Origin: Pseudomonadales bacterium
Lineage (GTDB): Bacteria > Pseudomonadota > Gammaproteobacteria > Pseudomonadales > Azotimanducaceae
DNA length: 64,000 bases
NCBI GenBank assembly: GCA_965116055.1
Contig: OZ220466.1
Coordinates: 689,907-753,906 of the forward strand
Reading direction: 5' to 3'
The translations under genes were made by a program, and so were the position numbers. Under the pieces are notes generated by a model that did no database searches, had not been told where the DNA came from, and saw only the letters and a list, made by a program, of their open reading frames with translations. This document shows, piece after piece, positions 8,673 through 57,593 of this stretch (the first letter of the stretch is position 1; every line of letters begins with the position of its first letter).

Positions 8673-8965
8673 CTGTCGTATGATATTTTTAATTATGTTT
8701 TATTTTGTTCGATATAAAAGATAAAACATGGATTCTATTCAAGCGGATCATGTTGTTGCATAGGAATGGATGCCCTATGAACATAGAAGTTTTCATACAT
8801 TATGAAACTAAATCGATAGATTGTTGTCATATAGATACTGCGTCACTAGCCCATACAAAGACAAATCAACAAAAAGTATGAAAAAATGACCATTCTCTTA
8901 TCTCTTGGTAGCGATGGTTATGCTATGATTATGAGCGATTTACGGCAATTCCCGCGGTGTGAGCC

Positions 8966-10903
8966 ATGAGCAGCATGACTAAAAACTTGCTTTTGTGGGT
9001 AGTCATTGGACTCGTTGCGCTGACTCTATTCACAAACTTCACGGGTTCATCGGATTCGCCGGAAATTAGCTATACCGCCTTCGTCGCGGAAGTAGAGGCT
9101 AACCGGGTGAAATCGGTCGTGGAAGAAAACAAGGTCTTGCATGGTACCCGGAAGGACGGCACGACTTTTAAGGTTGTAAAGACGGGCATTCCAGATTCCA
9201 AGATTCTTGACGATCTTCTCAACCGAGGCGTGGAGTTCCGCAGCATTGAGGATAGCGGTAATTCGTTTTGGATGAGCTTGTTGTTAGCTATGCTCCCAGT
9301 CCTGTTTATCGTTGGTCTTTTTGCGCTCATGTTGCGAAATATGCAGGGACTAGGAGGGCGCGGCGGACCATTGCAATTCGCTAAGAGTCGTGCGCGCAGA
9401 CTCACGGAGGAAGAAGTTGACACCACGTTTGCGGATGTCGCTGGCGTGGACGAAGCGAAAGAGGAAGTGCAGGAACTCGTGGAGTTTCTGCGCGATAAAG
9501 AGAAGTTTCAGAAATTAGGCGCCCGGATACCCCGTGGCACGCTTATGGTTGGTGCGCCTGGCACAGGTAAGACGTTGCTGGCGAAGGCTATTGCTGGTGA
9601 AGCGAAGGTTGCTTTTTTCAGCATTTCAGGATCCGATTTCGTCGAAATGTTTGTAGGTGTTGGGGCGTCCCGTGTCCGAGATATGTTTTCGGAAGCGAAA
9701 AACAATGCTCCCTGCATTGTCTTTATTGACGAAATTGATGCGGTTGGGCGCCATCGTGGTGCTGGTTTGGGTAATGGCCACGACGAACGCGAACAAACAC
9801 TTAACCAATTGCTCGTAGAGATGGACGGCTTTCAACCCAATGATGGGGTCATTGTGATCGCCGCCACCAACCGGCCTGATGTGCTGGATCCTGCATTGAT
9901 GCGTCCAGGCCGGTTCGACCGGCAAGTGGTCGTACCTTTGCCTGATATTCGCGGTCGCGAGCAGATCCTCAAAGTTCACATGCGCCGTGCGAAGATCGCA
10001 AATGATGTTCGGCCGGATCTCATCGCGCGCGGTACGCCAGGTTTTTCGGGCGCTGATCTGGAAAACGTGGTCAACGAAGCGGCGCTCTTCGCAGCCCGTA
10101 AGGGTCGTTCTGATGTGACCATGGAAGAGTTCGAGAAGGCTAAGGACAAAATCATGATGGGTGCGGAACGCCGCTCCATGGTGATGTCCGAGAAAGAGAA
10201 GCGAAATACCGCATATCACGAGGCCGGCCACGCGATCGTCGGTTACTCGCTTCCCGATCACGATACGCTTTACAAGATTACCGTTGTACCCCGCGGCCGT
10301 GCGCTTGGTGTGACCACGTTTTTACCCGAGGAAGATCGATACAGTTTGAGTCGATCAGCAGTGGAAGCGCAGATTTGCTCGCTCTTCGGCGGACGTATTG
10401 CGGAAGAGCTGATTAACGGCCCCGATGCTGTCACAACGGGCGCATCGAACGACATTGAACGCGCCACCCAATTAGCGCGAAATATGGTGACGAAGTGGGG
10501 TTTCTCGGATCGGATGGGACCTTTGCAGTACGCGGAAAATGAAAGTGAAGTCTTTCTAGGTATGTCTGCAGGGACGCCGACGAACTCTATGTCGAATGAC
10601 ACAGCTCGTGAAATTGACGAAGAAATTCGGCAGATTGTGGATCGTAACTACGCTCGTGCCAAGTCGATCGTTGAGACCAACATGGACAGACTCCATGCGA
10701 TGGCGAAATGGTTAATTGAATACGAGACGTTGAGCCCAGAGCAGGTCGAAGACATCATGGCAGGGAAAGACCCGCGCCCGCCCGAGGCGCCTCCTATGCC
10801 TGAATCGGGTCCATCACAAGACTTGGCACCCGATTCCGACCCTAATTTGCAAGGTGGTTCGCCGGATGCGCCGCCATTCGGCCCGCCGGCGACAGATTCC
10901 TAG
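8966..10903 (+). CDS. ftsH: ATP-dependent zinc metalloprotease FtsH
   Basis: N-terminal TM helices, Walker [14 protein letters not shown], Walker [14 protein letters not shown] region and the zinc motif HEAGHA. Confidence 0.97.
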
Positions 10904-10928
10904 TTTCTAGTTTCACGGCTTATCGCCA

Positions 10929-12269
10929 TTGGGCGAGGCGAAACAGTTATTCGGTACGGATGGCATTCGCGGTCTTGTCGGCGTTGATCCTGTTACGCCA
11001 TCGTTTGCCTTCCATTTAGGCCGAGTGCTTGCCTGTTTCTTTTTATCTTCTCAGGCGACGGTGTGTACAGGCAGGGATACGCGTCAATCATCCAAGGCGC
11101 TTGAAGCGCAATTGATTGCAGGATTGCATGAAGGTAAAGTCCATGTTGAGACGTTAGGCGTGATGCCAACGCCTGGCATTGCTTACTGCACCAGGCATAG
11201 TCCGGCCGATCTTGGGGTCGCCATCACAGCATCCCACAATGCATTCGAATACAACGGCTTTAAATTGTTCTCGCACAAAGGTGAGAAACTTCATCGCGAG
11301 CATGAGCAAGCCATTGAACAGGCGTTGTTTGAAACGCCGCGCACATCGCCTGCTCGTGAATATTCAGACGGCGACGTGAACTCCGAATTACGCGACGCTT
11401 ATTTGGATTTTTTACGCGGTCGTGCAATGCGAATTGGCAAAGTTTCTCTAACAGGCGTTGTGGATTGCGCACATGGCGCAACGACAATGACCGCGCCGAA
11501 AATGCTTAATGAAGTGTTCGATAAATTGCACTGGATTGGCAATAAACCCACCGGGACTAACATCAACGATCACGTAGGTTCGACTTACCTGGAAACAACA
11601 CAAAATAAAGTTAGAGCAACGCGTGCGGACATAGGTATAGCGTTTGACGGGGATGGCGACAGGGTATTACTCGTGGATCACGAAGGGACAGTGGTCGATG
11701 GAGATCAAATTCTTTATTTGTTAGCTAAGCATAGTGAGTCTGCTACTGATGGCCGAGGGGTAGTAGGCACGGTGATGAGCAACCATGGGCTTCAATTAGC
11801 ACTCAATGAACTTGAGATCCCGTTCGTTCGTGCCGATGTCGGCGACAAAGAAGTGTATGACGAGCTTGTTAAGCGTCAATGGCTACTCGGCGGCGAACCT
11901 TCTGGTCACGTGATATGGCGAGCAGCCTCTCACACCGGCGATGGCGTGCTCATCGCGCTGTGCTTACTAAATCTAGTTGAGCGGTTGGGAAAATCCTTGC
12001 GCGAGTTAGTCTCCGAGGTGTTGATGTTCCCACAAGTACAACGTGGCGTGTATGCGCCGAATCCTGCATTGTTCGCCGAGAGTCCGGCAATATTGGCAAT
12101 CGTGACTGAATACAGGGACCGAATTGCATCCGAGGGCCGATTGCTCGTTCGCCCATCCGGTACGGAGCCCCTGTTGCGGGTAATGGTTGAACACCCGGAT
12201 GAAAAGACGGGGATAGAAGTGGCAAATGCTCTTGTCAAAGCAATTTCACCAGTGACTAAACTGAGTTAA
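10929..12269 (+). CDS. glmM: Phosphoglucosamine mutase
   Basis: TTG start. FGTDGIRG N-terminus, active-site serine loop TASHNAFEYNGFKLF, metal loop FDGDGDR and GGEPSGH sugar-binding loop. Confidence 0.93.
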   Translation: MGEAKQLFGTDGIRGLVGVDPVTPSFAFHLGRVLACFFLSSQATVCTGRDTRQSSKALEAQLIAGLHEGKVHVETLGVMPTPGIAYCTRHSPADLGVAITASHNAFEYNGFKLFSHKGEKLHREHEQAIEQALFETPRTSPAREYSDGDVNSELRDAYLDFLRGRAMRIGKVSLTGVVDCAHGATTMTAPKMLNEVFDKLHWIGNKPTGTNINDHVGSTYLETTQNKVRATRADIGIAFDGDGDRVLLVDHEGTVVDGDQILYLLAKHSESATDGRGVVGTVMSNHGLQLALNELEIPFVRADVGDKEVYDELVKRQWLLGGEPSGHVIWRAASHTGDGVLIALCLLNLVERLGKSLRELVSEVLMFPQVQRGVYAPNPALFAESPAILAIVTEYRDRIASEGRLLVRPSGTEPLLRVMVEHPDEKTGIEVANALVKAISPVTKLS

Positions 12270-12339
12270 ATAGTCAAGATGGGGCACTTTAAATCGCTAA
12301 AATCTGCCCTCGAATCGCAGTGGCTTTGACTGTAAGATC

Positions 12340-13083
12340 GTGCGAAAACCCGTCGTCGCGGCCAATTGGAAGATGAACGGGTCATTGGAGCTTTGCAAGC
12401 AATTCGCCGCCGATCTGGTGCGTCCTAACTATGCAGATGTGTGGATTTTCCCGACGGCATTGCACTTGAATAGTTTAACTAGCATGTTGCATGGTAGCCG
12501 TATTTCGACGGGCGCGCAAAATGTGTCGTCCGAAACGGACGGTCCATTTACCGGTGAAATCTCTGCATCCATGGTCGCAAATATGCATGCAGAGCTAGCG
12601 TTAACGGGTCATTCGGAACGTCGAGCCCAATTCGGTGACTCCGACAGCCTAGTGGCTCAAAAATTTAAACGAATTAGCGAGGCTGGGTTGATGCCAGTGC
12701 TTTGCGTCGGCGAAACGCTGGAAGAGCGAAAGGCGGGGTTAGCTTCCACTGCCGTACAAAGGCAGTTGCGCGAGGTCGAAGCGAGTTGGGATCGCCCCGA
12801 CTTTTCGCATCGTGCCATCGCGTACGAACCTGTTTGGGCTATCGGTACTGGGAAAGCTGCTACCGCTGATGTCGTGCAAGAAATGCATCGGGAAATTCGC
12901 ACATATGTCGAGAATGTGAATACTGGAAAAGGCGATAATCTGCGTATCCTTTATGGCGGTAGTGTGAACGCAAAGAATGCCCGTGAATTGATTGTGCAAG
13001 AGGATATTGATGGTTTTCTTGTTGGCGGTGCATCATTGGATGTCATTGAATTCAATCGAATTTGTGAAGCGGTAAAGGAATAG
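12340..13083 (+). CDS. tpiA: Triose-phosphate isomerase
   Basis: GTG start. ANWKMNG, the GHSERR motif and the catalytic AYEPVWAIGTG motif. Confidence 0.94.
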   Translation: MRKPVVAANWKMNGSLELCKQFAADLVRPNYADVWIFPTALHLNSLTSMLHGSRISTGAQNVSSETDGPFTGEISASMVANMHAELALTGHSERRAQFGDSDSLVAQKFKRISEAGLMPVLCVGETLEERKAGLASTAVQRQLREVEASWDRPDFSHRAIAYEPVWAIGTGKAATADVVQEMHREIRTYVENVNTGKGDNLRILYGGSVNAKNARELIVQEDIDGFLVGGASLDVIEFNRICEAVKE

Positions 13084-13084
13084 C

Positions 13085-13543
13085 ATGGGTACCGTCGAAA
13101 CTGTCTTACTCATCTTACTTGTTGTGGACGCGCTTGCACTCATAGGATTGGTATTGATTCAACAGAGTAAAGGTGCTGACGTAGGCGCAGCATTTGGCAG
13201 CGGGAGCGCTGGAACCATGTTTGGCCCGTCTGGCGGGGCCTCTTTTTTAGTGAAGGTTACGACTGTTCTTGCGATTTTGTTTTTTGTCATCACGTTTGCC
13301 TTGGCTTACACTGCGAAGCAACGGGCTGACCGCTTGAGCGGATTTCAGTTAAGAGAGCCGCCGGCTGAAGTCGAATCGACTCAGGATATCCCAGACGTTG
13401 GCGCGGAATCGGTCGTTGACGATACCACGGTATTGGAAGGCGATGAGATTCCTATACTTGCCGAACCTAGCGACAGTGTTGAGGCTGCTGCGGAGGAAGA
13501 CCCTGAACCTGGTACCACACAGGAAGACGAAGTGCAACAATAG
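13085..13543 (+). CDS. secG: Preprotein translocase subunit SecG with an acidic C-terminal extension
   Basis: The first ~75 aa align to E. coli SecG (LIQQSKGADVGAAFGSGSAGTMFG, second TM helix). Synteny tpiA-secG-tRNALeu. The last ~70 aa are a D/E-rich tail. Confidence 0.85.
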   Translation: MGTVETVLLILLVVDALALIGLVLIQQSKGADVGAAFGSGSAGTMFGPSGGASFLVKVTTVLAILFFVITFALAYTAKQRADRLSGFQLREPPAEVESTQDIPDVGAESVVDDTTVLEGDEIPILAEPSDSVEAAAEEDPEPGTTQEDEVQQ

Positions 13544-13553: not shown

Positions 13554-13639
13554 GCCGAAGTGGTGGAACTGGTAGACACGCTGTCTTGAGGGGGCAGTGG
13601 GCTATGCCCGTGGAGGTTCAAATCCTCTCTTCGGCACCA
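13554..13639 (+). tRNA. leuU: tRNA-Leu (anticodon GAG), leuU-like
   Basis: The 86-nt sequence GCCGAAGTGGTGGAACTGGTAGACACGCTGTCTTGAGGGGGCAG...GGTTCAAATCCTCTCTTCGGCACCA is near-identical in architecture to E. coli leuU. It has a long variable arm, anticodon loop TTGAGGG and an encoded CCA. Confidence 0.92.
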
Positions 13640-13791
13640 AATACGCTTGCACGCGAAATGCCGCATCCCGCCAGAAATACGATATATAGCAATATAGGAT
13701 TTTTCCGTGTTCACCCCTGCGCGGAAATCCGCTTCATTTCGCTCCCATACGTTATCCAAATAGGGCCACAAAAAACGTGGTATAAGGAAAA

Positions 13792-14172
13792 TTGACCGTC
13801 AAGCTGATTCGCGCGACCAACAAACCGGGGTTTTACGGTGATGGCAACGCGCTTTTCTTGCGGGTCTTGCCGGGTGGCTCCAAACAATGGGTCCAGCGAC
13901 TCACCGTCCGGGGCAGGCGGCGAAACATTGGCCTCGGCGGCGTTCGTTGGGTGACGCTCGCCGAAGAGCGCGAGTCCGCCCATGAGAACCTACGCGTCAC
14001 CCGTCGCGGCGACCTGCCGGAAGCCAGACGCAAGCCGAAGATGTCGTTGTTCCGCGACGCGGCCCAGGGCAATTACGATTCCCTCTGTCCGAGATGGCGC
14101 ACCGAAAAGGTCGCCGCGAGCGGGATGCAGCAGCTCGAACGCTTGGGCGATCTGCCTGTGGGCCGCGGATGA
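13792..14172 (+). pseudogene. P4-type tyrosine integrase, N-terminal (arm-binding/DUF4102-like) fragment only
   Basis: KPGFYGDGNALFLRVLPGGSKQWVQRLTVRGRRRNIGLGGVRWVTLAEERE...RRGDLP matches the N-terminal consensus of P4-like integrases (KPG.Y.DG.GLyL.V...GsK.W..Ry...Gk...lgLG.yp.vsLaeAR). The ORF stops after 126 codons, so the core-binding and catalytic R-H-R-Y domains are missing. Confidence 0.72.
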
Positions 14173-16214
14173 TCGTACCGATTTTTCCACCCTTGGATGG
14201 GGAAACCGCTGAGCGATTCCATGCGTTGGCTACGAAACTCGCCTGCGCCCAGCGTACGCGCAACGCGAAGGAAATGAGTAGCGCATTGGAAGAAGAGACA
14301 GCTTGGTGCCGGTCGGCGAGGTGTAGCGAAAAGTATGTATTGGCCTATGAAGCGTGTGTCCGGGTTCTTACCGATCTCGCGCGGCTCGGTTGGCGCATCG
14401 TCGAACAAGGCTACGGGTTTGCCTTGGAGAAAGGCAAGGAACGGACGGGCCAGACGGCAGAAGAGATCGTGGCCAGCAAGGAGGCGCTGCGCCGTGAGTT
14501 GCAGCCCGTTGTCGATGAACAAAGGCGGCAACTCGCCGTAGTCGACTTCATCGCTCGGATGGAGGGAGAAGACAGCTACGGACGACGTAGCGTGCGGCTG
14601 CTCATGGCGGATGGAGCTGAGCTGGCGGCGAGGCTGGCGCCGGCGTGCACGCTGGAGGGTGAAGATCGGGTGGCATCGCTGAGCGATGCCATCAAGCCCT
14701 ATCTTCAGAAGGCGGACAAGAGTGTGGATCCGACGACAGGTCGTCGGCTTCGCGAGATCTGGCGTTATTTCCGGTATAGCTGGTCAATCCCCCAAGTGCC
14801 CACGCCGGGTCGGCAGTTGCTTTATCTCGTGAGGGATGCCGCGCACCCGGCACACCCGGTCATCGGCATCGCCGCACTCAACAATTGCCCACTCGAAATG
14901 GGCGAGCCGCGCGAGCGGTACATCGGCTGGCACTTCTCGGTGATCGTCGAACGCTTCACCGATGCCTTAGGGAGGGGCAAGGCGGCGCTAGAGGAGGAAG
15001 TCCGATGGCTCGAACGTCAGATCGAGACCTCACTCGCGGAAATCGACTGGACCAACCTCGTCACGGCGGCGGAAGTCGCCACTCCTGACGATGCAGTGAT
15101 CCGCCGGCTTGCGCGACGCGGGCAGGAATTCTCGAAGTTGCGGGAGACTTTGCTGAGGGCGGCTGCTGGGTCCTTTCAGGATCGGCTTGAGGCCGATCTC
15201 GCGGACGATGAAACGGCGCCCCCGGTGGATGACGACATCCTACAGCTGGAGGCGAAGGCATCGGTTGATTCACGCATGTACATGGCCCGCAAGCAACTCG
15301 TGGCGCGGAAGCGAGCCTCCGCATTGTTGCGTCTGCTGTCGGCCCGGCTCGTCATCGCCGAGCACCGGGACGAACTCACCGATCCCGAACGCGCGTCTGC
15401 AGCACTTGGCAAGGACAAGGTAAGAGGCGCGGTGAATATCGTGCTAGAGGCGCTGAAAGGGCGACGGGCAGGAGCCAATCTCCTTGAAATCACGACTTGC
15501 GGCGCGATCGCGCCCTACAATCGAATTCTCGGCGGCAAGCTCGTCGCCCTGCTGATGCTGAGCCCGCAGATCGGTGTTGACTATCGACGCCGTTATTCGG
15601 GCCCGTCAATCATCTCGTCACAAATGAAGAACCAGCCGGTGATCCGCGATAATGCGCTCGTCTATCTCGGCACGACCAGCCTCTACGTCTACGGATCTAG
15701 CCAATACAACCGGCTGCGTCTGCCGGCCGGGACGATCGCGCCGGACCAAGAGTGCATCCGTTACGATGAGATCGGTCAGACCTCCGGTTTCGGGACGATA
15801 CAGTTTTCGCCCGAAACGAGCCGTGCGATTAATGTCTTTCTAGCCCGTGAACACGGTTTCAAAGAGGTCAACAGCGTTTTCGGGGAAGGAACGAGTCCGA
15901 AGCTCCGCAAGGTGCAGATGGGGCTGCGCAGGCTGGGATTCGATCCAGGCAAGTTGATCCAGCATCGCCAACACCGCCTGATTTATGGCGCATCGCTGTT
16001 TCCGGCGGCGCGGGAGTGGTTGCAAGAACGCGTTGACGATCTGCCAGGCTATGTCGCAGCGCCGGATGGTTGCGGGGACGCCACCGAACGCATTGCCGCT
16101 TTTTGGAGGCGGCGCTGGCTCTCAAGCCGTCTTTGTCACCGGCCCAGCATGGTTGCTTTAGCGCGCGACGGTTTCGTACCCTTAGGAGAGACGGTGGGAA
16201 ATTCGGGCGGATGA
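14169..16214 (+). CDS. Island gene A: ~681-aa DUF4338/DruA-like protein with a long charged insert (function unknown)
   Basis: Two motif blocks are visible. The first is WRYFRYSWSIP..GRQLLYLVRDAAHPAHPVIGIAALNNCPLEMGEPRERYIGW. The second, ~230 aa later, is NLLEITTCGAIAPYNRILGGKLVALLMLSP...LVYLGTTSLYVYGSSQYNRL. From memory this pattern resembles the DUF4338 family (DruA of type I Druantia). The ORF is open from 14094. I prefer ATG 14169 because it forms an ATGA overlap with the integrase-stub stop. The stop overlaps the gene B start (ATGA). Confidence 0.55.
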   Translation: MIVPIFPPLDGETAERFHALATKLACAQRTRNAKEMSSALEEETAWCRSARCSEKYVLAYEACVRVLTDLARLGWRIVEQGYGFALEKGKERTGQTAEEIVASKEALRRELQPVVDEQRRQLAVVDFIARMEGEDSYGRRSVRLLMADGAELAARLAPACTLEGEDRVASLSDAIKPYLQKADKSVDPTTGRRLREIWRYFRYSWSIPQVPTPGRQLLYLVRDAAHPAHPVIGIAALNNCPLEMGEPRERYIGWHFSVIVERFTDALGRGKAALEEEVRWLERQIETSLAEIDWTNLVTAAEVATPDDAVIRRLARRGQEFSKLRETLLRAAAGSFQDRLEADLADDETAPPVDDDILQLEAKASVDSRMYMARKQLVARKRASALLRLLSARLVIAEHRDELTDPERASAALGKDKVRGAVNIVLEALKGRRAGANLLEITTCGAIAPYNRILGGKLVALLMLSPQIGVDYRRRYSGPSIISSQMKNQPVIRDNALVYLGTTSLYVYGSSQYNRLRLPAGTIAPDQECIRYDEIGQTSGFGTIQFSPETSRAINVFLAREHGFKEVNSVFGEGTSPKLRKVQMGLRRLGFDPGKLIQHRQHRLIYGASLFPAAREWLQERVDDLPGYVAAPDGCGDATERIAAFWRRRWLSSRLCHRPSMVALARDGFVPLGETVGNSGG

Positions 16215-17821
16215 GTGAGGGAGGACGCCGCGCGGAACCTACGATGGCCACAAACGACGGCGCCAGACTGTGGCGCATGCTTGCCGTGGCGGGCAGGGAA
16301 GCGATCGCCGAAGCGTTGACGGAGGAGGATTTCGAGCGGCTGCATGTTGTCGGTAGTATTGAGCGGTTCCTTGTCGACCAGGTGCAGATGGGCAGGAGTA
16401 TTGTAGTCACCGGAAATGCCGGGGACGGCAAGACGCACTTGCTGCGGCGCGTGAAGCCTAATCTCGAGAGCGCCGGCGCCGTTGTGGTCGAAGACGCGAC
16501 TGCCGAGATGATGGGTGATGATCCGCGTCCGGTTCTTGAGAAGTGGCGCAAGGCTGTGGAAGCCGGGCAGCCGTTTTGCCTGGCGGCGAATGAGTACCCG
16601 CTCTACCAGTTGAGATTGGCGGACGAATCTGCCCCGCATCTGGCGGAAGTTGACCGGCAATGCCGGCACCGCCTGGATTATGGAGAGGGCGAGCGGTCCG
16701 AGTGCAAGGGCGACACCGTGGTGATTGATCTCAGCCTCCGTAACCCGCTGAGTGCCGAGTTCTTCGGGGCTATGCTGGACAGGCTGCTGAACGACGAAGG
16801 GCTGAAGGCAGCACTGGCGAGCCCGAAAGAGTTGGCCGCCCGCCAAAATGTCGAGCTTCTTTCTCATCCACGGGTGCGGGCGCGGTTGCAGGTGCTGGCC
16901 GACCGGCTGGTGGCGTTGGGCCATCGTGCCACGGTGCGCGAGCTGTGGATCCTGTTGGCGCGAATGGTGTTCGGTCGGGGCGAGCGCGACACGTATCAAT
17001 GCGCAGACTGGTATTCGGAGGCGTTGTTCGCTCGGGACGACCGTTTCGAGCTGATGGATGCCCTGCGGGCGATGGATCCCGCCGATTGCAGCCACCCAAC
17101 ATGGGATGCTGCGCTGGATGCCCGCGAGTCCGCAGTGCGCGACGGGTGGGCGCTGCGCGCGCCAGTGCTGCCGCCGCATCCGACGCTTAAGTGGGAAGAT
17201 TTCGCTGCGCTCAAGCGCCGGTTCTATTTCGAGCACGACAAAGGCGAGGAGGCGTTCGAGTTGGACGACGCGGATGAGATTGAGTTCAGGCGGCACTTGG
17301 ACGGAAACGGTGCCTCAGGCCCGACGCTGGTTGCAAGATTGGTCGAATCCATCAACGCAGCCTACTGCCCTGTCCGCTTTGAGTTGCGCGATCAGCATTT
17401 GTATCTGTGGAACGGTCACCGCTTTCACGAGCAGCCGTCCCGGTCCTTCGTCGCCACCGAACGCGTGGCCACGGAGCAATTCGTCACGAAAGTGCCGCGC
17501 CTGCCGGAGCGGCTAGACGGGTGTTTCAAGTATCGGCCGGACCATATCTTGCTGACCGCACAAAAGCATCCGGGAACGCCGCGGCTGCGAATTGACTTCC
17601 CGCTCTGGCAGACGCTTCGCCGACTGGAGCGCGGCCTGCCGCGAAAGCTGATTCCGGAGCGCGACATTCATCGCCTGGACGCCTTCCTCCAGGAGCTCGG
17701 TGCGGGGCCGGTAGGGACTCGCGACAGCATCTGGTCTGTTCACATAGAAAACTTGGAACTGATCCAAGTGAATCTCAGCGCGGATAGGAGTCGCTTCGAG
17801 CGGGTGCGCCGCTATGGCTAA
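16211..17821 (+). CDS. Island gene B: 536-aa P-loop NTPase (family unassigned)
   Basis: Walker A IVVTGNAGDGKTHLLRRV, followed by an acidic hydrophobic strand AVVVEDATAE. The remaining ~430 aa have no motif I recognise. The ORF is open from 16070, but ATG 16211 gives an ATGA overlap with the gene A stop. Confidence 0.7.
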   Translation: MSEGGRRAEPTMATNDGARLWRMLAVAGREAIAEALTEEDFERLHVVGSIERFLVDQVQMGRSIVVTGNAGDGKTHLLRRVKPNLESAGAVVVEDATAEMMGDDPRPVLEKWRKAVEAGQPFCLAANEYPLYQLRLADESAPHLAEVDRQCRHRLDYGEGERSECKGDTVVIDLSLRNPLSAEFFGAMLDRLLNDEGLKAALASPKELAARQNVELLSHPRVRARLQVLADRLVALGHRATVRELWILLARMVFGRGERDTYQCADWYSEALFARDDRFELMDALRAMDPADCSHPTWDAALDARESAVRDGWALRAPVLPPHPTLKWEDFAALKRRFYFEHDKGEEAFELDDADEIEFRRHLDGNGASGPTLVARLVESINAAYCPVRFELRDQHLYLWNGHRFHEQPSRSFVATERVATEQFVTKVPRLPERLDGCFKYRPDHILLTAQKHPGTPRLRIDFPLWQTLRRLERGLPRKLIPERDIHRLDAFLQELGAGPVGTRDSIWSVHIENLELIQVNLSADRSRFERVRRYG

Positions 17822-19160
17822 CGCAACGCGAACGAAAGCGGACACGGCCGCCGTGCGCCGTGTACATGGTGCTATCCTCGGGTACCACCCTTACCGTATG
17901 AAGCCGGTTCACTTTGCCACGAGTTTCCTTCTGGCGTTGACTGGCCGATACCGCCGGCTCGAATACCTGAACAAAGCGTCGGTGCCGAAGACAGTACCTA
18001 GGGGCAGGCCGAACATCCAGAACGAGTACCTGGACGTTCGGCTTCATTCCCGGCTGGTCGATCTTGAGAAACTGGACCCGTCGGTTGACCTGGAGTCGTT
18101 CCGCATGCTTCGTGCGCACCTGAACGCAGCATACAACAACGACGGTTCAGCTCTCGCAGCCAGCTTTTCGCCCTATTCGACGTTCGGGGTGGACTACAGT
18201 GCCCCCTCGGCCCGATACATCTCGAACCGATCGAAGAACCATGGTTATTCGGGGAGCTTCGTCGTTTCGGTCTTGGAAGCCACCGCCGAGGGACGGGAAG
18301 CACTCGGAAGCATCAGGCGGCTGCTAGAGCTTCCGCCGCCGCCGCTGGATGCGTTCGGCGAGCCTCTGCTTGACGACGTGGACGAGGAATGGTGCGATCA
18401 GCACGACGAGTTCTACGGCACGATCGAGCCTGGAAGGCTGGCGCGGGTCGGGTCGGAAATGAAGGACTGCACGGTTGCGATAGGCTGCCTCGCCGCGAAT
18501 CTCGAGCGACTGCGATCCAGCTATTCGCTGCGCTACATGGTGCTAGGTCTCTGTTGTTGGCTGTTTGCCTACATGATGCGCCGGGGAAGCGATTCGCCGC
18601 CGCTGCTAATTGACGCGGTGCAGGGACGTAATCCCAGGATCCGCGCACAGAGCAGGGCCACCTATGCGCGGGCGCTGGACCTCTTTTCCTCCAGCTACGA
18701 CCGGGCTTTCTCGCTGGCCGGTAGCTCGGGGATCAAGGAAGACGACTGGGATGTGTTCGCCCGCTCGGAGAAAACCCGCCAAGAACTGGATGATCACTTT
18801 CGGGACTTGGGTGTGCGGATCGGCATCGTGCAGCCCCGCTCAACGGTCGCCAAGCACAAACATGTTGAACTGCAAGCGGACACGCTTCGGGTGCTCTCGT
18901 ACAGCCTGCTTAAAGAGGGCCAAGTGCTGACTCTGCCGACATTCGCAGACCAACTCAGAAGAGTCTGGTCAATTCTGGTCGGTGCCCACGCTTCGGACGG
19001 CGACGTTCTGCGCGCAAACCGCTTCGGTCCCCTTGATCACGATGAGGATCTGCGATCGAACGCGGCTGCGTTCCGATCGCTGTTGGTGAGGCTAGGCTTG
19101 GCGGTAGAGCCGTCCGACGGGCTGACACTGGTCGCGATCAACGCGGAAGAGGCGATCTGA
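17814..19160 (+). CDS. Island gene C: 448-aa hypothetical protein, no recognisable motif
   Basis: Long high-GC ORF with GC3-rich codons. It overlaps gene B by 8 nt (ATGGCTAA) and ends 1 nt before gene D. No P-loop, nuclease or TM motifs were seen. Confidence 0.65.
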   Translation: MANATRTKADTAAVRRVHGAILGYHPYRMKPVHFATSFLLALTGRYRRLEYLNKASVPKTVPRGRPNIQNEYLDVRLHSRLVDLEKLDPSVDLESFRMLRAHLNAAYNNDGSALAASFSPYSTFGVDYSAPSARYISNRSKNHGYSGSFVVSVLEATAEGREALGSIRRLLELPPPPLDAFGEPLLDDVDEEWCDQHDEFYGTIEPGRLARVGSEMKDCTVAIGCLAANLERLRSSYSLRYMVLGLCCWLFAYMMRRGSDSPPLLIDAVQGRNPRIRAQSRATYARALDLFSSSYDRAFSLAGSSGIKEDDWDVFARSEKTRQELDDHFRDLGVRIGIVQPRSTVAKHKHVELQADTLRVLSYSLLKEGQVLTLPTFADQLRRVWSILVGAHASDGDVLRANRFGPLDHDEDLRSNAAAFRSLLVRLGLAVEPSDGLTLVAINAEEAI

Positions 19161-19161
19161 G

Positions 19162-22100
19162 ATGGCGCGCACGGCAGCATCGCTGGTGAGCGAGGCACTG
19201 GCGTCTTGGATTCTCTCGCGGCTGGGCCATGAGAACGATTTCGCGCGCGAGGGACTTCCAGAGTTCGACATTCCGTGCCTGATGCAGGCACTTTCGGAGG
19301 GAGGCCTGCCTGCCGGAAGATTCTCGCTGGCGCTGGTCGGATTCGAGACGACAGAAGAGGAGGTGCGGGCGCTCGCGGACGCGAATGGTCTCAGCGCGCT
19401 TGCCGGGGTGACACTTGATCTCCATGTCGCCACCGAGTGGCGCAATGATCGCAACCGGCATCCGAGGATCGTCGCACTGGCGCTCGGCTACAATCCGGGC
19501 GTGCACGGCTTGCGCTTCTTCTCCCGCGCCTCTTCGGGAGAACTCGCAGCCATTCTGCTGGGCTGGGCGGAGAACGCATCCGAGTTCACGACCACCCCAC
19601 AGCACCAAGAGTTGCTGAAGACGCTGCGTCTGGCGCGGGGGCTGGGGTCGGTTCGTTCCCTGGAAGGCGTTGCGGCCTTTCTCGCCGAATGGAGCAAGGG
19701 AGGTGACGGGGCGATTGGCAGGCCGCGCGATGTTCTTCCCGCTCTCGGACTGCTCCGCGATCCGCGATTGTTTGAGGCAGACGACCTGGCCAAGCGTCTC
19801 GAACACAATCTGCGTGTAGGGGAGAGCGTCACCATCATGTCACCAGGAGACATCCGGCAGCGGCGCAAGCGCGCGACGCACTACCGCGATGCGGAGACGG
19901 CTGAGCTGGTGACCCAAGCGCTGGACCGACTGGAAGCCCATCGGCGCGGCGATCCCGACGCAGGGCTGACGTTGGAGGATGCGGATCGCCTCATGAGCCT
20001 TCCCGTTGACCCACCACCGGCCTCCTGCTCGGAGACGGACGAGCCAGACATTTCCGACGAACACGACGACGCCGAGGAAAAGGACGAGCCCAGACTGCAC
20101 GAGATGGCGGTGGATGCACTACTGGAAGGTCGCGATGAAGATCTCGCGGCCATCGGTGAGCTCCTTGAAGCCGCGTGGGAAGAGTTTCGGCGGAACGGGG
20201 ATCTACTGGTGTCCAGTCAGGAAACCAGCCAGGGAGTGGCTCGGCTCGAAGAGCACGTCGACCCCAAAGTCATTGACTGGGTTGCCGCCTTCTGCTGCGA
20301 GGATCGCTATGGCGGGCTCATTGAGACCGACATTGATGACCTGTCGCAGGCGCTTGCCCGCTATACCGAGTTCGACCCCCTATTCCTGGACCCAGGCGCG
20401 ATCTGGAAGCATGACGGGGTCTCCTACTCCATTGAGGAGCTGCTCAAAGGGTGGGATAAAGTGGATGCTGTCGCCGAAGCCCGCCCACGCCTGATCGCAG
20501 CGATGTGGCGCGATTTCGTCGCCGCGCGCACCTCGCTTGCGAAGGGAGGGATGACGAGTCCGCTTCTCATCCATCCTCGCGAGTGGCTTGATACCCATCC
20601 CGAAACACGAGATTTCTGCGCGCGCTACCTTGCGGTGGCGACCGAACTCTACAAGGCGATCCAGCAGAATTATCGGGCAGTCTGGGACCAGTCGCCCGAG
20701 TGGGCGCAGGCGACGCTGGACGCGATTCTGTCGCTTGACCTAGTACAAGTTCGGATTGCGGGTCTTGACGGCGGATTCAGCGCCAAGGCGGTGATGTTGC
20801 CGCTGCATCCGCTGCATCTGTGGCGATACCAGCGTTTCGGAGAAATTCTCCGCGATCTCTCGCGTACGGGACCGATGTCCGAAGGCGACAAAAAGGTCGT
20901 CATTGAGGAGTTGCGCCGTCCGGAACACTTTGTCAGCGTCATAAGAACCGGGGCCACGCCGGAAGGACGGGGGCTCAACCAGTTGCTTCCCGTCGCTAAC
21001 CAGATTCGCGGCCTCGCGACGTTCGAGAACCTGCACAATGCGATCAGCAGCGCCGATGGTATGGAGACGCTGGTTCTCGCGCTTAATCGCTTCGTGATGC
21101 TTTACCCCAACCATCCGCGGCCGCTCCGGTTGACGCTGGTCAATCCACCCGAACCAGCTCGGCTACTGGAACGACTGACGAAATTCCTGAATGAGCGGCA
21201 GAACATCGGCGGACGTCTTCCCGCCCTCAAAGTGACAGTCGTCGCCACGGCCGGGCACCGGGATCGGCTGACGGCGATGTCGGTACTCGAAAGCAAGGCG
21301 CAGGACCTGGTTTACGAGCAAGTCTCCGCCGGCCGACTTGATCTGCGCGTGGAACGCGATTCCTTTGAGAATCTCGACCGGCTGGTAACGGAGGTGCTGT
21401 CGAAGCGTCCGCAGCACTTGGTGGCGATCTTCGACGAGTCCGCGGTCTCGGTCAAGCGCAGGCGGGTCGAGCGCCTACTGCCCATGAGTCCGTTCTGCGT
21501 GCGCAACGAGATCGTGATTGATCGGATGCTGGGCGATATCAGCCTGAGTCCACATCCGGGTGAACCGCCGTTCTCGGATTTCGTGATGATGATCCACGAG
21601 TTCGAGCAGGAGCAGCGGGACAGCACGATGGTCGCCTCGGCGGATGCTGACCGGCTACGCTCGACGATTGATGACCTGCTGATCGGAGAGCGAGCGCCGG
21701 CGCGCTGGGTCCTGCTCGCGGATCGCGCTCTGCCGCCGGAAAGCGGCATGACGTCCATCCGCCTCTTGCAGCGTAGGGAGGGACATCGCCAGGTGCTGCT
21801 GAGCGCAGCTGACTATGGACGGTTGTCGACATTAATGCGTGCCGCGTTCAGTAACTGTAATCTAACGATCACGAATGAGGGGTTGGGTCACGTTCTGCGG
21901 CAGGGCGTGAACTTGGTCGGTGCCGGTTTGCTTGACATGATCAAGAAGCAGTCCGGATTGCCAGACAAATCGTTGGTGCTCGGGTTCGTGGGCATGCTGC
22001 TCGCCGCTCGACATGTGCGAAGCGAGGATCCGCATGCACTGGTCGCCTCGGTTGACGGGTCGGTCGCACGCCTCTGGCTTAAGCTGAGCCCTGTGGGTGA

Positions 22101-23937
22101 CCGCAGGCGCTGCGATCTGATTGCGCTTCGTCGAGGGGCGAACGAGTCATTTCGTATCACCTGTATTGAAGTCAAGACAACTGGGGAATCAATCCTTTCT
22201 GACGAGACAGCATTGATTGGTTATGCGGCTGACCAGATCGAGCGTACGGCGGCGGTACTGTCGAGCGCGGTTGGCGAGTCGGGGCCGTTCGCGGCACCGC
22301 GCTTGGAAATGTTGAAAGAGGTCTTGGTGAGGGCGGCATCAAGCCGCTGGGGCGAGGAGCAGGACGATGTCGCTCAGCGCAAGATCTGGGGTCCGCTGCT
22401 CAAGGACCTGCTCGGGGACGGTCCCGAACCGTCGGTCGTGCGGGTGGACGGCGAGATCGTCATCGTGAAACTGCGCTCAACGGAGCCGGCCCGGGTGAGG
22501 CCACTCAGGGGGAGAGAGATCCCGCTTTCAGTCAGGACAATAAACGAGAAGGAGGCGGAGTTCCTGTTCGACAATGATTTCGTAACCGAGGCTCCGCCGG
22601 AAGGCGCGGATTCGGACGGCGATGCTTCAGATGCAGAACAGAGGGGCGGGCATAATTCGCCCAGTGAAGAGGCGCCGCTACCGGCTGAACGTGCTTCTAA
22701 ACCGGAATCGGGATTGCGTGATGGTTACGGGACCAGGGATACGGCGACTGAAACAGGCGGGGATGAGCCATCGTTGATCGCTGCCGATGCGGCGGCCGGG
22801 AGAAAACGTCGGGACGGGACGGAGGTGCCGACGACCTCGGCGGTCGTCGACCGCGCGAACGAAGCAGTTGTCGAAGGGGAGGGGGTGAGCGCGGGTTCGG
22901 TCTGGCCGCCGCGCGTGAACGCGCTGGGGATGGTCGGACAATACGAAATCGCCCAAGAACTGGACAATCAAGCGCGCAAGGCAAGGGGCTGGGGCGAGAG
23001 GTTCCTGGACAAGTTGTTCGTCGGGCCCGCCGGCGTTGGCAAAACGACGCTCGCCCGTCGGATCGCTGAACGACTGCTTCAGCTAGAACCGATCGTGTTC
23101 AACGGCGCAGATCTTCGCCGGCCGGACATGATCGTGGAGCGACTGATGGAGGCCGGCAAGGCACCGGGCACCGGCGGACGCAGCGTTGAGGTCACAGTCG
23201 CCCCCTGCCTAATCTTCATAGACGAGGTGCATGCGGTTGCAAGCCAGGTTTCGACAGTTCTACTCAGCGCGTTAGACGAGCGGCGTAGCACCACGATCGG
23301 AAATGTGGTTTACAGTTTTGAGGATGTCGTGTTCCTGCTGGCGACCACGGATCCGGGTAGGCTCTCGGAGGCGTTCCAGAGCCGGCCGGACAAGACGATC
23401 CTGCGGTCTTACACGCTCGAGGAGGTGGCCGGGATTGTCTGGCTCCACTCCGTGGAGACGCTTGAGCAAACGGGCCTCAGCCGCGAGACCTGTATTGAGA
23501 TTGCGGCGCGCATGCAGTGCAGCCCGCGGCCGAGTGTCAACATCCTCAAGCCACTGGTGGCGAGTTTCTACGGCACAGCAGAGTACGGGCTGGGACGCGT
23601 GCCGACCAAGGAAGAAGTCGCGGACCTGATGAACACGGGTGCCGTGGCGAGGTGGTTCGAAGATACACAGGGCATTGACCGAAACGGCCTTACCTCGGTG
23701 CATGTGGAATATCTCAAGCTGCTACAGATCCGCGGTACCTCGGCGGAGGAAGAGATTCGCCGGGCGCTCGGAATCTCGAACCGGGCCGACTTCGTGATCG
23801 TATCGGAGTATCTGACCCGTCTCGACCTGATCCGCGTCGGACCTGGCGGTCGAGGTCTGACCTCCGATGGCAGGCGTTATCTCAACGCGTCGTCTCCGCC
23901 TGACTTCCGCGACAGGATCTCACGTCGCATTGCCTGA
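19162..23937 (+). CDS. Island gene D: 1591-aa multidomain protein (large unknown N-region, PD-(D/E)xK-like motif, acidic disordered linker, complete RuvB-like AAA+ ATPase with C-terminal winged helix)
   Basis: The nuclease-like motif is CDLIALRRGANESFRITCIEVKTT (D985...E1003-x-K1005, nt 22114-22176). The RuvB-like part begins at PPRVNALGMVGQYEIAQEL. It has Walker A FVGPAGVGKTTLARRIAE (nt 23023-23046), Walker B CLIFIDEVHAV (D1354 E1355) and sensor-1 FLLATTDPGRLSEAFQSRPD. The C-terminal block GIDRNGLTSVHVEYLKLL...ALGISNRADFVIVSEYLTRLDLIRVGPGGRGLTSDGRRYL mirrors the RuvB C-domain consensus (GLD..D..yL..l...G....iA.alg......e.v.EPyLi..g.i.RTpRGR..T). Confidence 0.8.
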   Translation: MARTAASLVSEALASWILSRLGHENDFAREGLPEFDIPCLMQALSEGGLPAGRFSLALVGFETTEEEVRALADANGLSALAGVTLDLHVATEWRNDRNRHPRIVALALGYNPGVHGLRFFSRASSGELAAILLGWAENASEFTTTPQHQELLKTLRLARGLGSVRSLEGVAAFLAEWSKGGDGAIGRPRDVLPALGLLRDPRLFEADDLAKRLEHNLRVGESVTIMSPGDIRQRRKRATHYRDAETAELVTQALDRLEAHRRGDPDAGLTLEDADRLMSLPVDPPPASCSETDEPDISDEHDDAEEKDEPRLHEMAVDALLEGRDEDLAAIGELLEAAWEEFRRNGDLLVSSQETSQGVARLEEHVDPKVIDWVAAFCCEDRYGGLIETDIDDLSQALARYTEFDPLFLDPGAIWKHDGVSYSIEELLKGWDKVDAVAEARPRLIAAMWRDFVAARTSLAKGGMTSPLLIHPREWLDTHPETRDFCARYLAVATELYKAIQQNYRAVWDQSPEWAQATLDAILSLDLVQVRIAGLDGGFSAKAVMLPLHPLHLWRYQRFGEILRDLSRTGPMSEGDKKVVIEELRRPEHFVSVIRTGATPEGRGLNQLLPVANQIRGLATFENLHNAISSADGMETLVLALNRFVMLYPNHPRPLRLTLVNPPEPARLLERLTKFLNERQNIGGRLPALKVTVVATAGHRDRLTAMSVLESKAQDLVYEQVSAGRLDLRVERDSFENLDRLVTEVLSKRPQHLVAIFDESAVSVKRRRVERLLPMSPFCVRNEIVIDRMLGDISLSPHPGEPPFSDFVMMIHEFEQEQRDSTMVASADADRLRSTIDDLLIGERAPARWVLLADRALPPESGMTSIRLLQRREGHRQVLLSAADYGRLSTLMRAAFSNCNLTITNEGLGHVLRQGVNLVGAGLLDMIKKQSGLPDKSLVLGFVGMLLAARHVRSEDPHALVASVDGSVARLWLKLSPVGDRRRCDLIALRRGANESFRITCIEVKTTGESILSDETALIGYAADQIERTAAVLSSAVGESGPFAAPRLEMLKEVLVRAASSRWGEEQDDVAQRKIWGPLLKDLLGDGPEPSVVRVDGEIVIVKLRSTEPARVRPLRGREIPLSVRTINEKEAEFLFDNDFVTEAPPEGADSDGDASDAEQRGGHNSPSEEAPLPAERASKPESGLRDGYGTRDTATETGGDEPSLIAADAAAGRKRRDGTEVPTTSAVVDRANEAVVEGEGVSAGSVWPPRVNALGMVGQYEIAQELDNQARKARGWGERFLDKLFVGPAGVGKTTLARRIAERLLQLEPIVFNGADLRRPDMIVERLMEAGKAPGTGGRSVEVTVAPCLIFIDEVHAVASQVSTVLLSALDERRSTTIGNVVYSFEDVVFLLATTDPGRLSEAFQSRPDKTILRSYTLEEVAGIVWLHSVETLEQTGLSRETCIEIAARMQCSPRPSVNILKPLVASFYGTAEYGLGRVPTKEEVADLMNTGAVARWFEDTQGIDRNGLTSVHVEYLKLLQIRGTSAEEEIRRALGISNRADFVIVSEYLTRLDLIRVGPGGRGLTSDGRRYLNASSPPDFRDRISRRIA

Positions 23938-24114
23938 AGCGTTTTGGCTCGGCGGGATTTGTTGGCGTAAGGGAGGCGACGAAGAGGGTGTAAATCTCGT
24001 ATGGCGATGACGGTTTGGGTCTGACATCCGGGATTCATGCGGCGCGTCTGGTAAGGTACAACACTCTCGGCATCGCGCTACCGTGACAAAATCCAGCTTT
24101 GGACCCACAGATTG

Positions 24115-25010
24115 TCACCAAACCCCGTAATCGGGAACCCGAGAAGGCTCTTGTGTTGTTATATGTGTATCTTGTCCGACATGCTCGACAATAAAGTTCG
24201 TTTCGATGGTGTTGTCGGCAATAAGCTGATCTTCAAGGTCGTTCGACGGCGGAAGCGTTTCGAAATGTCTGGCTAGGTCTTCCTCACTAAACCCGCGCTT
24301 CAGGATGCCCTTTTGAACTTCTCGGCCTCTTGATCGACATCCACGATCATGTGCCAGGGATTTCAAAGGTCTCCACCAATGCCGGATAGATCCCGGCATT
24401 ACCGCTCTGCTTGAAGTCGACAACGGCGACGCCGTGTGTATCAAGAGGCCAGCCTAGATCTTTGCCGAGCGCATGTACAAAGAGGTATTCGGTAACGCCT
24501 TCGACAAGAAGCTAGCGGCGGGCGAAGAAGATTTCTCCGCGGACACGCCGTCCATGAAAACCGAGTTCTTCTTCATCCTCGGTCGTCGGGAGAATGCGGC
24601 CTTGGTGACGAAGGCGGCGGATCGCTTCGGCGCGTTCATGACGGTCGGGATCGCGCTGATAGCACTCGAAAGGCGATCAGACATGGTCATGTCGAACCAG
24701 ATCGTACCGCCACGCTCTTGGTCGGAATGCCTTGCAAGAAGATTTGGTCGCCTGATGCCGCGATGAACGCATCATGACTGTCGTTCCAAGGCAGCTCGGA
24801 AACGATATACGGCGGTAGTAAGGAAAATTCGGCACAGCCACCCGCAACCGAACCAGCCTGATGTCGCGCAACGGCACATTCTGGACAAAATACGGGGAGT
24901 AGGTCGTCATGACTTTCTGACCGGATAACTCCTGCACACGCTCCCACAATTTGTGCGCCGCTTGCGGGTGGAGATGAACCGCCGGTTCCTTTATAGCGAA
25001 AAAAAGAAAG
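24115..25010 (-). pseudogene. OLD-family (ABC-type ATPase + Toprim) nuclease remnant, 5'-truncated and frameshifted
   Basis: Four frame segments read on the minus strand. (1) FAIKEPAVHLHPQAAHKLWERVQELSGQKVMTTYSPYFV is the Walker-B/D-loop/H-loop region of OLD/AAA_15-type ATPases (consensus IEEPE.HLHP....TTHSP). (2) LLVEGVTEYLFVHALGKDLGWPLDTHGVAVVDFKQSGN carries the Toprim Glu. (3) IPWHMIVDVDQEAEKF carries the Toprim DxD. (4) The C-terminal tail. In-frame stops and frameshifts separate the segments. The Walker A half is absent. Confidence 0.72.
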
Positions 25011-25096
25011 CGGTTAGGTTTCCATATTGGAGCGCGTGAGATACGTGCACTTCCTCTACGAGGCAGACTAACGGTAAAACTTATAATTTAGGCGCT

Positions 25097-25173
25097 TGCG
25101 GGGTGGAGCAGTCTGGTAGCTTGTTGGGCTCATAACCCAAAGGTCGTAGGTTCAAATCCTACCCCCGCAACCA
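25097..25173 (+). tRNA. metY: tRNA-Met (CAU), initiator type (metY-like)
   Basis: The 77-nt sequence TGCGGGGTGGAGCAGTCTGGTAGCTTGTTGGGCTCATAACCCAAAGGTCGTAGGTTCAAATCCTACCCCCGCAACCA aligns base-for-base with E. coli tRNA-fMet. It has three consecutive G:C pairs in the anticodon stem and A11:U24. It lies upstream of rimP-nusA-infB, as metY does in E. coli. Confidence 0.9.
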
Positions 25174-52509: not shown

Positions 52510-52624
52510 TTGGAACTTTCCATTCGTGTGGGCGCTCGATTCATTGAGCTGAGAACGCAAACCAATTCGCTTGTGACTTGAGACTCCGTTAGGAGAGCTT
52601 GGGTACGCGAGCAAACCAATCTTT

Positions 52625-54160
<1,536 letters not shown>

Positions 54161-54675: not shown

Positions 54676-57593
<2,918 letters not shown>

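Follow-up and report, generated by a model that had tools for sequence, protein, structure and literature searches.

A probable decayed tRNA-Leu island with an intact four-gene operon resembling FGH-type restriction modules in a Pseudomonadales bacterium

Introduction

In the chromosome of an uncultured Pseudomonadales bacterium (Azotimanducaceae; assembly GCA_965116055.1), a stretch of G+C-rich DNA lies between the genes for tRNA-Leu and initiator tRNA-Met, which raises the questions of how this DNA entered the genome, whether it can still leave and what its genes may do. We analysed 64,000 nt of contig OZ220466.1 (positions 689,907 to 753,906), referred to below as the window, and all coordinates are those of the window unless another locus is named. 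An earlier sequence-only reading had proposed that 13,640-25,010 is a tRNA-targeted island that has become immobilised. Islands inserted by P4-type integrases are known from E. coli, for example KpLE2 at leuX and CP4-57 at ssrA, and in classical P4-type islands the integrase gene stands right after the tRNA gene in the same orientation. Our analysis indicates that 13,643-25,081 is probably the decayed remnant of at least one such tRNA island, and that it holds an intact operon, most likely acquired from a high-GC lineage, whose homology and architecture point to a stand-alone FGH-type restriction-like defence module.

Results

The insert is absent from related genomes

The closest relative (locus L005, GCA_026706935.1) served to place the borders of the insert, which are marked by the following features.

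13554-13639, plus strand: tRNA-Leu(GAG), orthologue of E. coli leuU (ARAGORN and Rfam), with the presumed integration site at its 3' end (attL side)
13640-13791: AT-rich left end (45% G+C), not homologous to the L005 spacer beyond 'AAAT'
25001-25081: last window-specific bases and thus the right border (blastn and alignment against L005), with no attachment (att) repeat in repeat searches
25097-25173, plus strand: initiator tRNA-Met(CAT), metY orthologue (ARAGORN and Rfam), part of the backbone and followed by rimP-nusA-infB

Comparison with relatives shows that the window-specific insert spans 13,643-25,081 (11,439 bp) between tRNA-Leu and tRNA-Met. The empty junction that the sequence-only reading had expected in relatives is found in three of them (L005, L045 and L046), where tRNA-Leu and tRNA-Met are separated by 102-104 nt. 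L005 has the order secG, tRNA-Leu(GAG), a 102-nt spacer and tRNA-Met, and blastn shows the window to be collinear with it up to 13,642 and again from 25,082. The tRNA-Leu genes of the two are identical, the alignment identity runs through the tRNA and 'AAAT' before the sequences diverge, and the foreign DNA begins 4 nt past tRNA-Leu(GAG). L045 and L046 are metagenome contigs with an identical tRNA-Leu 3' half, a 104-nt spacer and the same empty junction, and their homology to the window ends at 13,642 and restarts at 25,097. The tRNA-Met region is 94.6-97.5% identical to that of the relatives, and this tRNA has the initiator features of a C1/A72 mismatch and three G-C pairs (GGG/CCC) in the anticodon stem. 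The existence of an 11.4-kb insert between tRNA-Leu and tRNA-fMet, absent from three relatives, is therefore confirmed, but its right border, proposed at 25,010, is placed by the relatives at 25,081. The statement that the two tRNA genes are neighbours in E. coli is only loosely true, because K-12 has yhbX and argG between leuU and metY.

The window NusA shares 87% identity with the NusA of an uncultured 'Gammaproteobacteria bacterium' metagenome-assembled genome (MAG), and about a dozen relatives of this clade fall at 72-87%. Beyond the clade the values fall to 53%, and those for named genera to about 45%, indicating that the host belongs to a poorly described gammaproteobacterial lineage. 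Among the other relatives, the L041 contig ends 838 bp before nusA, and in L007, L008 and L043 the 10 kb around rimP contain no secG and neither of the two tRNA genes. Look-ups for exact copies of the window SecG, NusA and DruA proteins gave no match. A metagenome scan for the host-specific secG/tRNA-Leu string found no conspecific contig.

The neighbourhood also carries other inserts. L005 and L006 have a different block of about 4.9 kb after tRNA-Met, which in L005 (4488-9382) encodes hipBA, AHSA1, an EcKL-type kinase and an ABM monooxygenase and is unrelated to the window. L046 (reverse complement, 10270-13392) has about 3.1 kb of window-unrelated DNA after tRNA-Met. The 3' ends of both tRNA genes appear to be used as insertion points in the host lineage.

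The insert differs from the backbone in composition

The G+C content is 61-64% over 13.79-23.94 kb, with 69-76% G+C at third codon positions (GC3), compared to about 51% and a GC3 of 47-57% in the backbone. The values for the individual parts are as follows.

Integrase fragment: G+C 0.643, GC3 0.76
Four cargo genes: G+C 0.606-0.626, GC3 0.69-0.74
gajA remnant: G+C 0.552
Backbone: G+C 0.51-0.52, GC3 0.47-0.57

A profile in 1-kb windows gives G+C values of 0.50-0.53 up to 13.5 kb, 0.60-0.645 at 14.0-24.0 kb, 0.53-0.565 at 23.5-25.5 kb and 0.49-0.50 beyond. The tetranucleotide usage of the four-gene cassette correlates with that of the backbone at r = 0.62-0.76, while parts of the backbone correlate among themselves at 0.89-0.91; the cassette reaches 0.78-0.84 against the flanks of alphaproteobacterial-type loci and 0.87 against the cassette copy in L013. 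The composition profile that had been suggested as a check thus shows the step in G+C, GC3 and tetranucleotide usage alike. The positions of the step need refinement at both ends. The rise that had been claimed at the tRNA 3' end is real, but the first 152 nt are AT-rich and the high G+C starts at 13.79 kb. Likewise, G+C does fall toward 25.0 kb, but the high values stop at 23.94 kb, at the last cargo stop codon, and a zone of 52-55% extends from there to 25.0 kb.

The integrase is truncated and no distal repeat is found

The first gene after tRNA-Leu is the following.

13792-14172, plus strand: P4-type tyrosine integrase fragment of 126 codons (Pfam Arm-DNA-bind_3 PF13356, E 4e-11, residues 2-81)

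P4-type integrases are about 400 codons long. The arm-type DNA-binding domain is the sole Pfam match of the fragment, and no catalytic domain is present, in line with the P4-type integrase fragment read from the sequence alone. The fragment lies directly 3' of tRNA-Leu in the orientation of the tRNA, and its TGA overlaps the ATG of the first cargo gene (ATGA). In tblastn searches it shows 30-41% identity to genes annotated as 'site-specific integrase' or 'integrase arm-type DNA-binding domain', many of them alphaproteobacterial.

No second copy of the tRNA-Leu 3' end was found in the window, whether with up to 3 mismatches in 25 nt, with 30% mismatch at lengths of 12-45 nt, by blastn-short or with a repeat finder. 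The only likeness to the tRNA-Leu 3' end elsewhere in the window is the generic T-arm of other tRNAs, such as tRNA-Met. The absence of a direct repeat at the right border, noted earlier by eye, therefore extends to degenerate copies. At the left end (13640-13791) no sigma-70 consensus promoter was found, and consensus scans for promoters and terminators at both borders were uninformative.

The locus thus shares with tRNA islands that have P4-type integrases its position at a tRNA 3' end, an integrase remnant that comes first and in the same orientation, foreign composition, accessory cargo (putative defence genes) and absence from relatives. It differs from them in that only the arm domain of the integrase is left, direct repeats are lacking and another tRNA gene lies next to the far end.

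The cargo is an intact four-gene operon found in many phyla

Four genes follow the integrase fragment.

14169-16214, plus strand: cargo gene 1, DruA-like DUF4338 protein of 681 amino acids (aa) (PADLOC PDLC00001, E 4e-126; Pfam DruA PF14236, E 3e-26)
16211-17821, plus strand: cargo gene 2, SspF/DndF-like P-loop protein of 536 aa (PADLOC SspF, E 6e-11; DndF, E 8e-4)
17814-19160, plus strand: cargo gene 3, SspG-like protein of 448 aa (orthologues match PADLOC SspG)
19162-23937, plus strand: cargo gene 4, H-type protein of 1,591 aa (Pfam AAA, RuvB_N and RuvB_C; NCBIfam RuvB, E 5e-16)

The genes fill 14,169-23,937 (9.8 kb) and overlap or abut one another, with ATGA at two junctions and 1 nt between the last two genes. 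All four open reading frames are full length compared to their homologues, and the ratio of nonsynonymous to synonymous substitution rates (dN/dS) against three close relatives is 0.15-0.20 for each of them. The results show that the four-gene operon is intact and conserved.

A scan of a genome collection found relatives of gene 1 at 29 loci. The same four-gene order is seen at about 22 of these, and the rest are cut by contig ends or disrupted. The titles of these loci name Alphaproteobacteria, Binatia, Pseudomonadales, Vicinamibacterales, Bryobacterales (Acidobacteriota), Verrucomicrobiota, Longimicrobiales (Gemmatimonadota), Spirochaetia, Latescibacterota and others, and the cassette occurs in at least eight phyla among the sampled loci. 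The DruA-like protein was not found in 2.9 million viral contigs. At other loci the cassette lies amid toxin-antitoxin genes, transposases and genes of conjugative-element type (DUF932, DUF736, DUF2958 and ParB_N). Truncated arm-domain integrase fragments and a DDE transposase were observed a few kb upstream of the DruA-like gene at L014 (6,900-9,800) and L025 (86-364), and the cassette often seems to reside in decayed islands.

The operon probably came from a high-GC lineage, and the island may have been built in steps

The closest cassettes are found in alphaproteobacterial MAGs, with 85-86% DNA identity and 82-88% protein identity, and the best matches with names are from Rhodospirillaceae/Rhodospirillales, Propylenella, Mesorhizobium, Aminobacter, Rhizobium, Caulobacter and Sphingomonas. 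The best matches of the cargo thus come from high-GC lineages, the nearest named ones being Alphaproteobacteria, which agrees with the high-GC donor proposed earlier and supports the acquisition of the operon from a high-GC lineage most like Alphaproteobacteria. The G+C content of the window cassette is 3-4 points below that of its closest relatives, and among its private changes 397 are GC-to-AT and 69 are AT-to-GC. This bias is consistent with amelioration in a host of 51% G+C, although it is not proof of it.

DNA similarity to the nearest cassettes runs from the druA ATG (14,166-14,169) to 23,930-23,954 and thus covers the operon only, with different flanks in every genome. Because the similarity is confined to the operon, it does not show a single donor or a single event. 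The close relatives share an upstream leader of about 60 nt, and the window has coding sequence of the integrase fragment in its place. A single deletion could account for the loss of both the 3' two-thirds of the integrase and all DNA from there to the operon start codon; the operon, having lost its own leader, would now be read from the start region of the integrase fragment via the ATGA overlap.

Beyond the operon, the insert contains two further segments.

23938-24198: 261-nt segment with 52% G+C and no family match, which may hold the last decayed gajA codons
24199-25000, minus strand: Gabija gajA pseudogene (PADLOC GajA PDLC00062, E 6.5e-64)

One minus-strand frame of the gajA remnant, from about 25,000 to 24,356, covers model positions 306-520 of 639, and positions 531-571 lie in another frame. 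In-frame stops and a frameshift interrupt the remnant, which has lost the N-terminal 305 residues, and gajB is absent. Its G+C content of 55%, its stronger decay and its distal position suggest older cargo and a stepwise build-up of the island, in which the dead gajA would mark earlier defence cargo at the same site.

These observations bear on the number of insertions. Under tandem accretion or cassette swapping, at least two events would have occurred, in which an older Gabija island was followed, on the tRNA-proximal side, by a newer high-GC element or by the operon alone through recombination, and the integrase fragment and the operon need not have arrived together. This history has close to an even chance. 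It is favoured by the contrast between the heavily decayed gajA remnant and the intact operon with 62% G+C, by the restriction of DNA similarity to the stretch from the druA ATG to the gene 4 stop, by the loss of gajB where the operon ends, and by other loci that carry the cassette beside unrelated mobile genes; however, the high G+C and GC3 of the operon are shared by the integrase fragment, and no internal att copy separates two islands. Accretion refines the tRNA-island explanation and does not contradict it. Of the proposal of a single island with one donor, the foreign, high-GC character stands, but the segment is a mosaic with a distal gajA remnant of 55% G+C.

In the tRNA-island explanation, a P4-type tyrosine integrase would have inserted one or more islands at the 3' end of tRNA-Leu(GAG), and later deletions would have taken the catalytic part of the integrase together with the distal attachment repeat. 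Deletions appear to have trimmed both island ends, because the integrase is cut down to its arm domain and gajA lacks its first 305 residues and gajB. With the catalytic part and the distal repeat deleted, the segment would now be fixed in the chromosome and probably cannot excise. The empty sites, the composition, the integrase remnant and the absent attR together support the tRNA-targeted and now immobilised island that had been proposed.

The cargo proteins resemble F, G and H subunits

The homologues of gene 1, with identities up to 88%, are publicly annotated as 'Druantia anti-phage system protein DruA', and annotation pipelines label the cassette 'Druantia DruA' plus 'AAA family ATPase'. 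The AlphaFold2 (AF2) model of the gene 1 product has a predicted local distance difference test (pLDDT) score of 81.6, and Foldseek against PDB returned no match at E <= 0.001 and a few GNAT acetyltransferases at E 2.6-5. Genes 1 and 2 are fused into one open reading frame (1,184-1,303 aa) in 12 distant loci (about 44% identity). This fusion matches that of a GNAT-like DUF4338 domain to the N-terminus of DndF, which is mentioned in a comparative study (PMC10853773).

The gene 2 product has the Walker A motif GNAGDGKT, a 'DAT' motif and an Asn at the Walker B position, and a canonical Walker A with a Walker-B asparagine is the hallmark of DndF, a derived P-loop kinase (PMC10853773). The profile of 19 gene 2 orthologues aligns with DptF in hhalign with a probability of 92.9% (E 3.6e-7, 239 columns), and its GNAGDGKT/DAT/LAANE motifs align with GSSGDGKS/DAT/VGINI of DptF. 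Gene 3 belongs to a rare family that accounts for 126 clusters among 1.84 billion representatives. PADLOC SspG is matched by 9 of 20 gene 3 orthologues (best 2.6e-7) and by 9 of the 10 remote homologues scanned (down to 1.9e-16), and hhalign of gene 3 with DptG found no similarity, the Dpt profile being made of two sequences. Sequence searches of PDB with genes 1-3, as single proteins and as profiles, gave P-loop matches at chance level only, and such searches found no solved structure for the cargo proteins apart from the generic AAA+ module. None of the NCBIfam Dpt models matched any of the window cargo proteins.

The gene 4 product consists of a conserved body that matches no Pfam family (residues 1-1130), a low-complexity linker (about 1130-1250) and a RuvB-like AAA+ module with a winged helix (1257-1577). 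The AAA+ module matches NCBIfam RuvB at 5e-16 over residues 1257-1577, has RuvB as its best PDB sequence match and contains the motifs GPAGVGKTT and FIDEVH. The body carries a PD-(D/E)xK-like motif made up of the invariant residues D985, E1003 and K1005 ('CDL...IEVKT'), and the D...EVK spacing is that of DptH ('DDV...LEVKT'). The body also has an NPPx motif after a predicted strand, without the aromatic residue of active methyltransferases. Pfam assigned no family to the central and nuclease regions of six gene 4 orthologues. The AF2 model of residues 1-1130 has a pLDDT of 80.1, and Foldseek against PDB gave no match at E <= 0.001, the best hits below the threshold being Rossmann methyltransferases (probability 0.95-0.98). 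The Foldseek queries were whole multidomain models, which make poor queries. DndG has been described as a triple winged-helix protein and the DndH body as an inactive methyltransferase plus an active restriction endonuclease (PMC10853773), and the Foldseek results for genes 1 and 4 are compatible with the domain assignments of that study without confirming them.

A DndH-type HerA/FtsK C-terminus is present in 7 of 20 gene 4 orthologues (E down to 2e-76, covering the last 370 or so residues only), and a RuvB-like AAA+ C-terminus is found in the window clade and in some loci of the fused type. The presence of either end on a conserved body points to a swap of the motor. We found no note of this AAA+ motor swap in PMC10853773, the study that mentions the DUF4338-DndF fusion, and among the literature mentioning DUF4338 we found no description of the four-gene cassette or of the swap. 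In a separate comparison, haloarchaeal plasmid genes annotated as 'DNA translocase FtsK' (H6, H7, H9, H11 and H16) match residues 100-626 or so of the body of an H-type orthologue at 22-24% identity (E 1e-13 to 6e-10), and archaeal relatives of the H body may therefore exist. If so, they are perhaps related to the Pbe systems of haloarchaea.

The operon is most aptly classed as a Dnd/Ssp FGH variant

We compared the operon with known systems. Relative to DndFGH/DptFGH, gene sizes of 536/448/1,591 aa compare with 532-536/438-445/1,675-1,729 aa in two DptFGH loci; the F-like P-loop has the canonical Walker A and the Asn in Walker B; the H-like protein has D...(17-18 residues)...EVKT just before the linker and the C-terminal motor ATPase; a HerA/FtsK domain of the DndH type is present in sister cassettes, and the DUF4338-F fusion appears in PMC10853773. 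Linked modification genes are lacking, as in many FGH loci (PMC10853773). The differences are that the window H ends in a RuvB-like AAA+ with a winged helix and not in HerA/FtsK, that DUF4338 is a separate 681-aa gene, that gene 3 is unlike DptG, and that the H body is not significantly like DptH. SspFGH has been shown experimentally to be an anti-phage module that damages non-modified DNA (PMC8092258). SspF is the best match of gene 2 (6e-11), and gene 3 is linked to SspG through its relatives only. However, SspH ends in an FtsK-like domain and acts together with SspABCD phosphorothioation, while the window operon has a RuvB-like motor and an extra DUF4338 gene, and the window shows no modification genes that could be its partners. 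Druantia type I (DruA-E) shares with the operon the DruA/DUF4338 family of gene 1, but the operon is without DruB, DruC, DruD or the signature DruE (DUF1998) helicase.

Three assignments were rejected. The Druantia label is a mis-annotation, since genes 2-4 match no Dru model (PADLOC, Pfam). An active Gabija system is excluded, with gajA a pseudogene and gajB absent. A phosphorothioation-dependent Dnd system was rejected as no dnd genes are linked: tblastn with DndB, DndC, DndD and DndE found nothing in the 64-kb window, and within 10 kb of the cassettes elsewhere the only match is a weak DndC-like one at a locus with a disrupted cassette. Judged from protein families and motifs, the most fitting description of the operon is that of a Dnd/Ssp FGH variant in which DUF4338 is encoded separately and the motor is RuvB-like, and homology and architecture suggest that it acts as a stand-alone restriction-like defence module. 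By analogy with DndFGH and SspFGH (DNA nicking and translocation, PMC11662687; damage to non-modified DNA, PMC8092258), the F subunit would sense nucleotides and the G subunit would bind DNA, while H would move along double-stranded DNA by means of its hexameric ring ATPase and nick or cut invading DNA with its PD-(D/E)xK domain. The fusion of DUF4338 and F into a single protein in other phyla leads us to propose that the two act together.

Alternatively, the operon might not be anti-phage at all and might serve a mobile element (in DNA processing, partition or the exclusion of competitors) or DNA repair. RuvB-like ATPases act in recombination, some loci lie among the conjugative-element-type genes named above, and the cassette was not found in the 2.9 million viral contigs. 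We consider such a role unlikely in view of the homology to SspF, SspG and DndF, the DndH-type ATPases of sister cassettes, the conserved nuclease motif, and the survival of the cassette here without a mobile-element backbone and beside the remnant of another defence gene; moreover, element exclusion and phage defence can coexist.

Other features of the window

A second foreign-looking block with a G+C content of 0.38-0.41 lies right after the rRNA operon. These and other features outside the insert are as follows.

52624-54160: 16S rRNA
54676-57593: 23S rRNA
57681-57796: 5S rRNA
57,800-61,700: second foreign-looking block
58988-59557, minus strand, within the block: transposase fragment (DUF772)
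59792-61609, plus strand, within the block: intact GmrSD-type (DUF262/DUF1524) type IV restriction endonuclease
41,575-43,170, minus strand: DksA/TraR zinc-finger protein (Pfam DksA_N and zf-dskA_traR at residues 417-525)
8966-10903: ftsH

The DksA/TraR protein is extended at its N-terminus by about 400 residues, among which K, T, A and S are frequent, and this accounts for the extreme AT skew (reaching -0.55) between 41.5 and 43.5 kb. G+C dips to 0.42-0.44 at 8,000-9,500, upstream of and into the start of ftsH. Because L046 is homologous to 8,000-8,672, this dip is probably native intergenic or leader DNA and not an island.

Discussion

The reading of the locus as a tRNA island with a defence module has to be weighed against several results. 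The consensus scan yields no promoter, and in view of the lack of att repeats the entry by an integrase is drawn from the position and the integrase remnant. Defence function is deduced from homology and from co-location with the Gabija remnant here and with toxin-antitoxin and conjugative-element-type genes elsewhere. The window gene 3 itself matches no family model directly; the gene 4 body gives no significant hhalign match to DptH, again with a Dpt profile of two sequences; and the likeness to SspH is weak, with 3 of 20 gene 4 orthologues at E <= 0.1 (N-terminal) and a best value of 7e-4. As no Foldseek match reached E <= 0.001, neither the GNAT fold nor the methyltransferase-like fold is confirmed. 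The negative dnd search covers 64 kb of the host, and modification genes elsewhere in the genome are possible.

Two further explanations of the insert are each very improbable. Ancestry of the segment with deletion in the relatives could draw on their distance (72-87% in NusA) and on the rearranged region from the tRNAs to rimP in several of them, but it fails against the foreign composition, the integrase remnant at the tRNA end, the same short 102-104-nt spacer in three relatives, and cargo that is 85-88% identical to alphaproteobacterial proteins, compared to about 45% for the host NusA against any named genus. A chimeric join in a metagenome-derived contig might be suspected, as the host lineage is known solely from MAGs and the contigs of relatives tend to break near the site (L041), but collinear backbone continues on either side within a single 3.13-Mb contig, the start of the foreign block falls exactly behind the tRNA and has an integrase fragment, which is a biological island signature, and the 397 GC-to-AT against 69 AT-to-GC private changes fit residence in a genome of lower G+C.

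The island itself is ordinary, a textbook case that matters mainly for annotation, and it shows the leuU/metY interval to be an insertion hot spot in this uncultured gammaproteobacterial lineage. The cargo matters more than the island, as a widely transferred cassette and an uncharacterised candidate for defence. Through gene fusion as well as operon linkage, it connects DUF4338, known from Druantia type I, with the Dnd/Ssp-type F subunit. We tentatively propose, at somewhat less than even odds, that DruA-F-G-H is a distinct defence system without a modification partner, in which the HerA/FtsK pump has been exchanged for a RuvB-like AAA+ motor of the branch-migration type and DUF4338, which has a putative acetyltransferase fold and is also encoded by the first gene of Druantia type I, is the sensor or a second effector. 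The operon is defined, intact and compact (9.8 kb), which makes these questions directly testable. If the proposal is true, DUF4338 would be a shared module linking Druantia and FGH restriction systems, and the H nuclease could be driven by unrelated classes of ring translocase.

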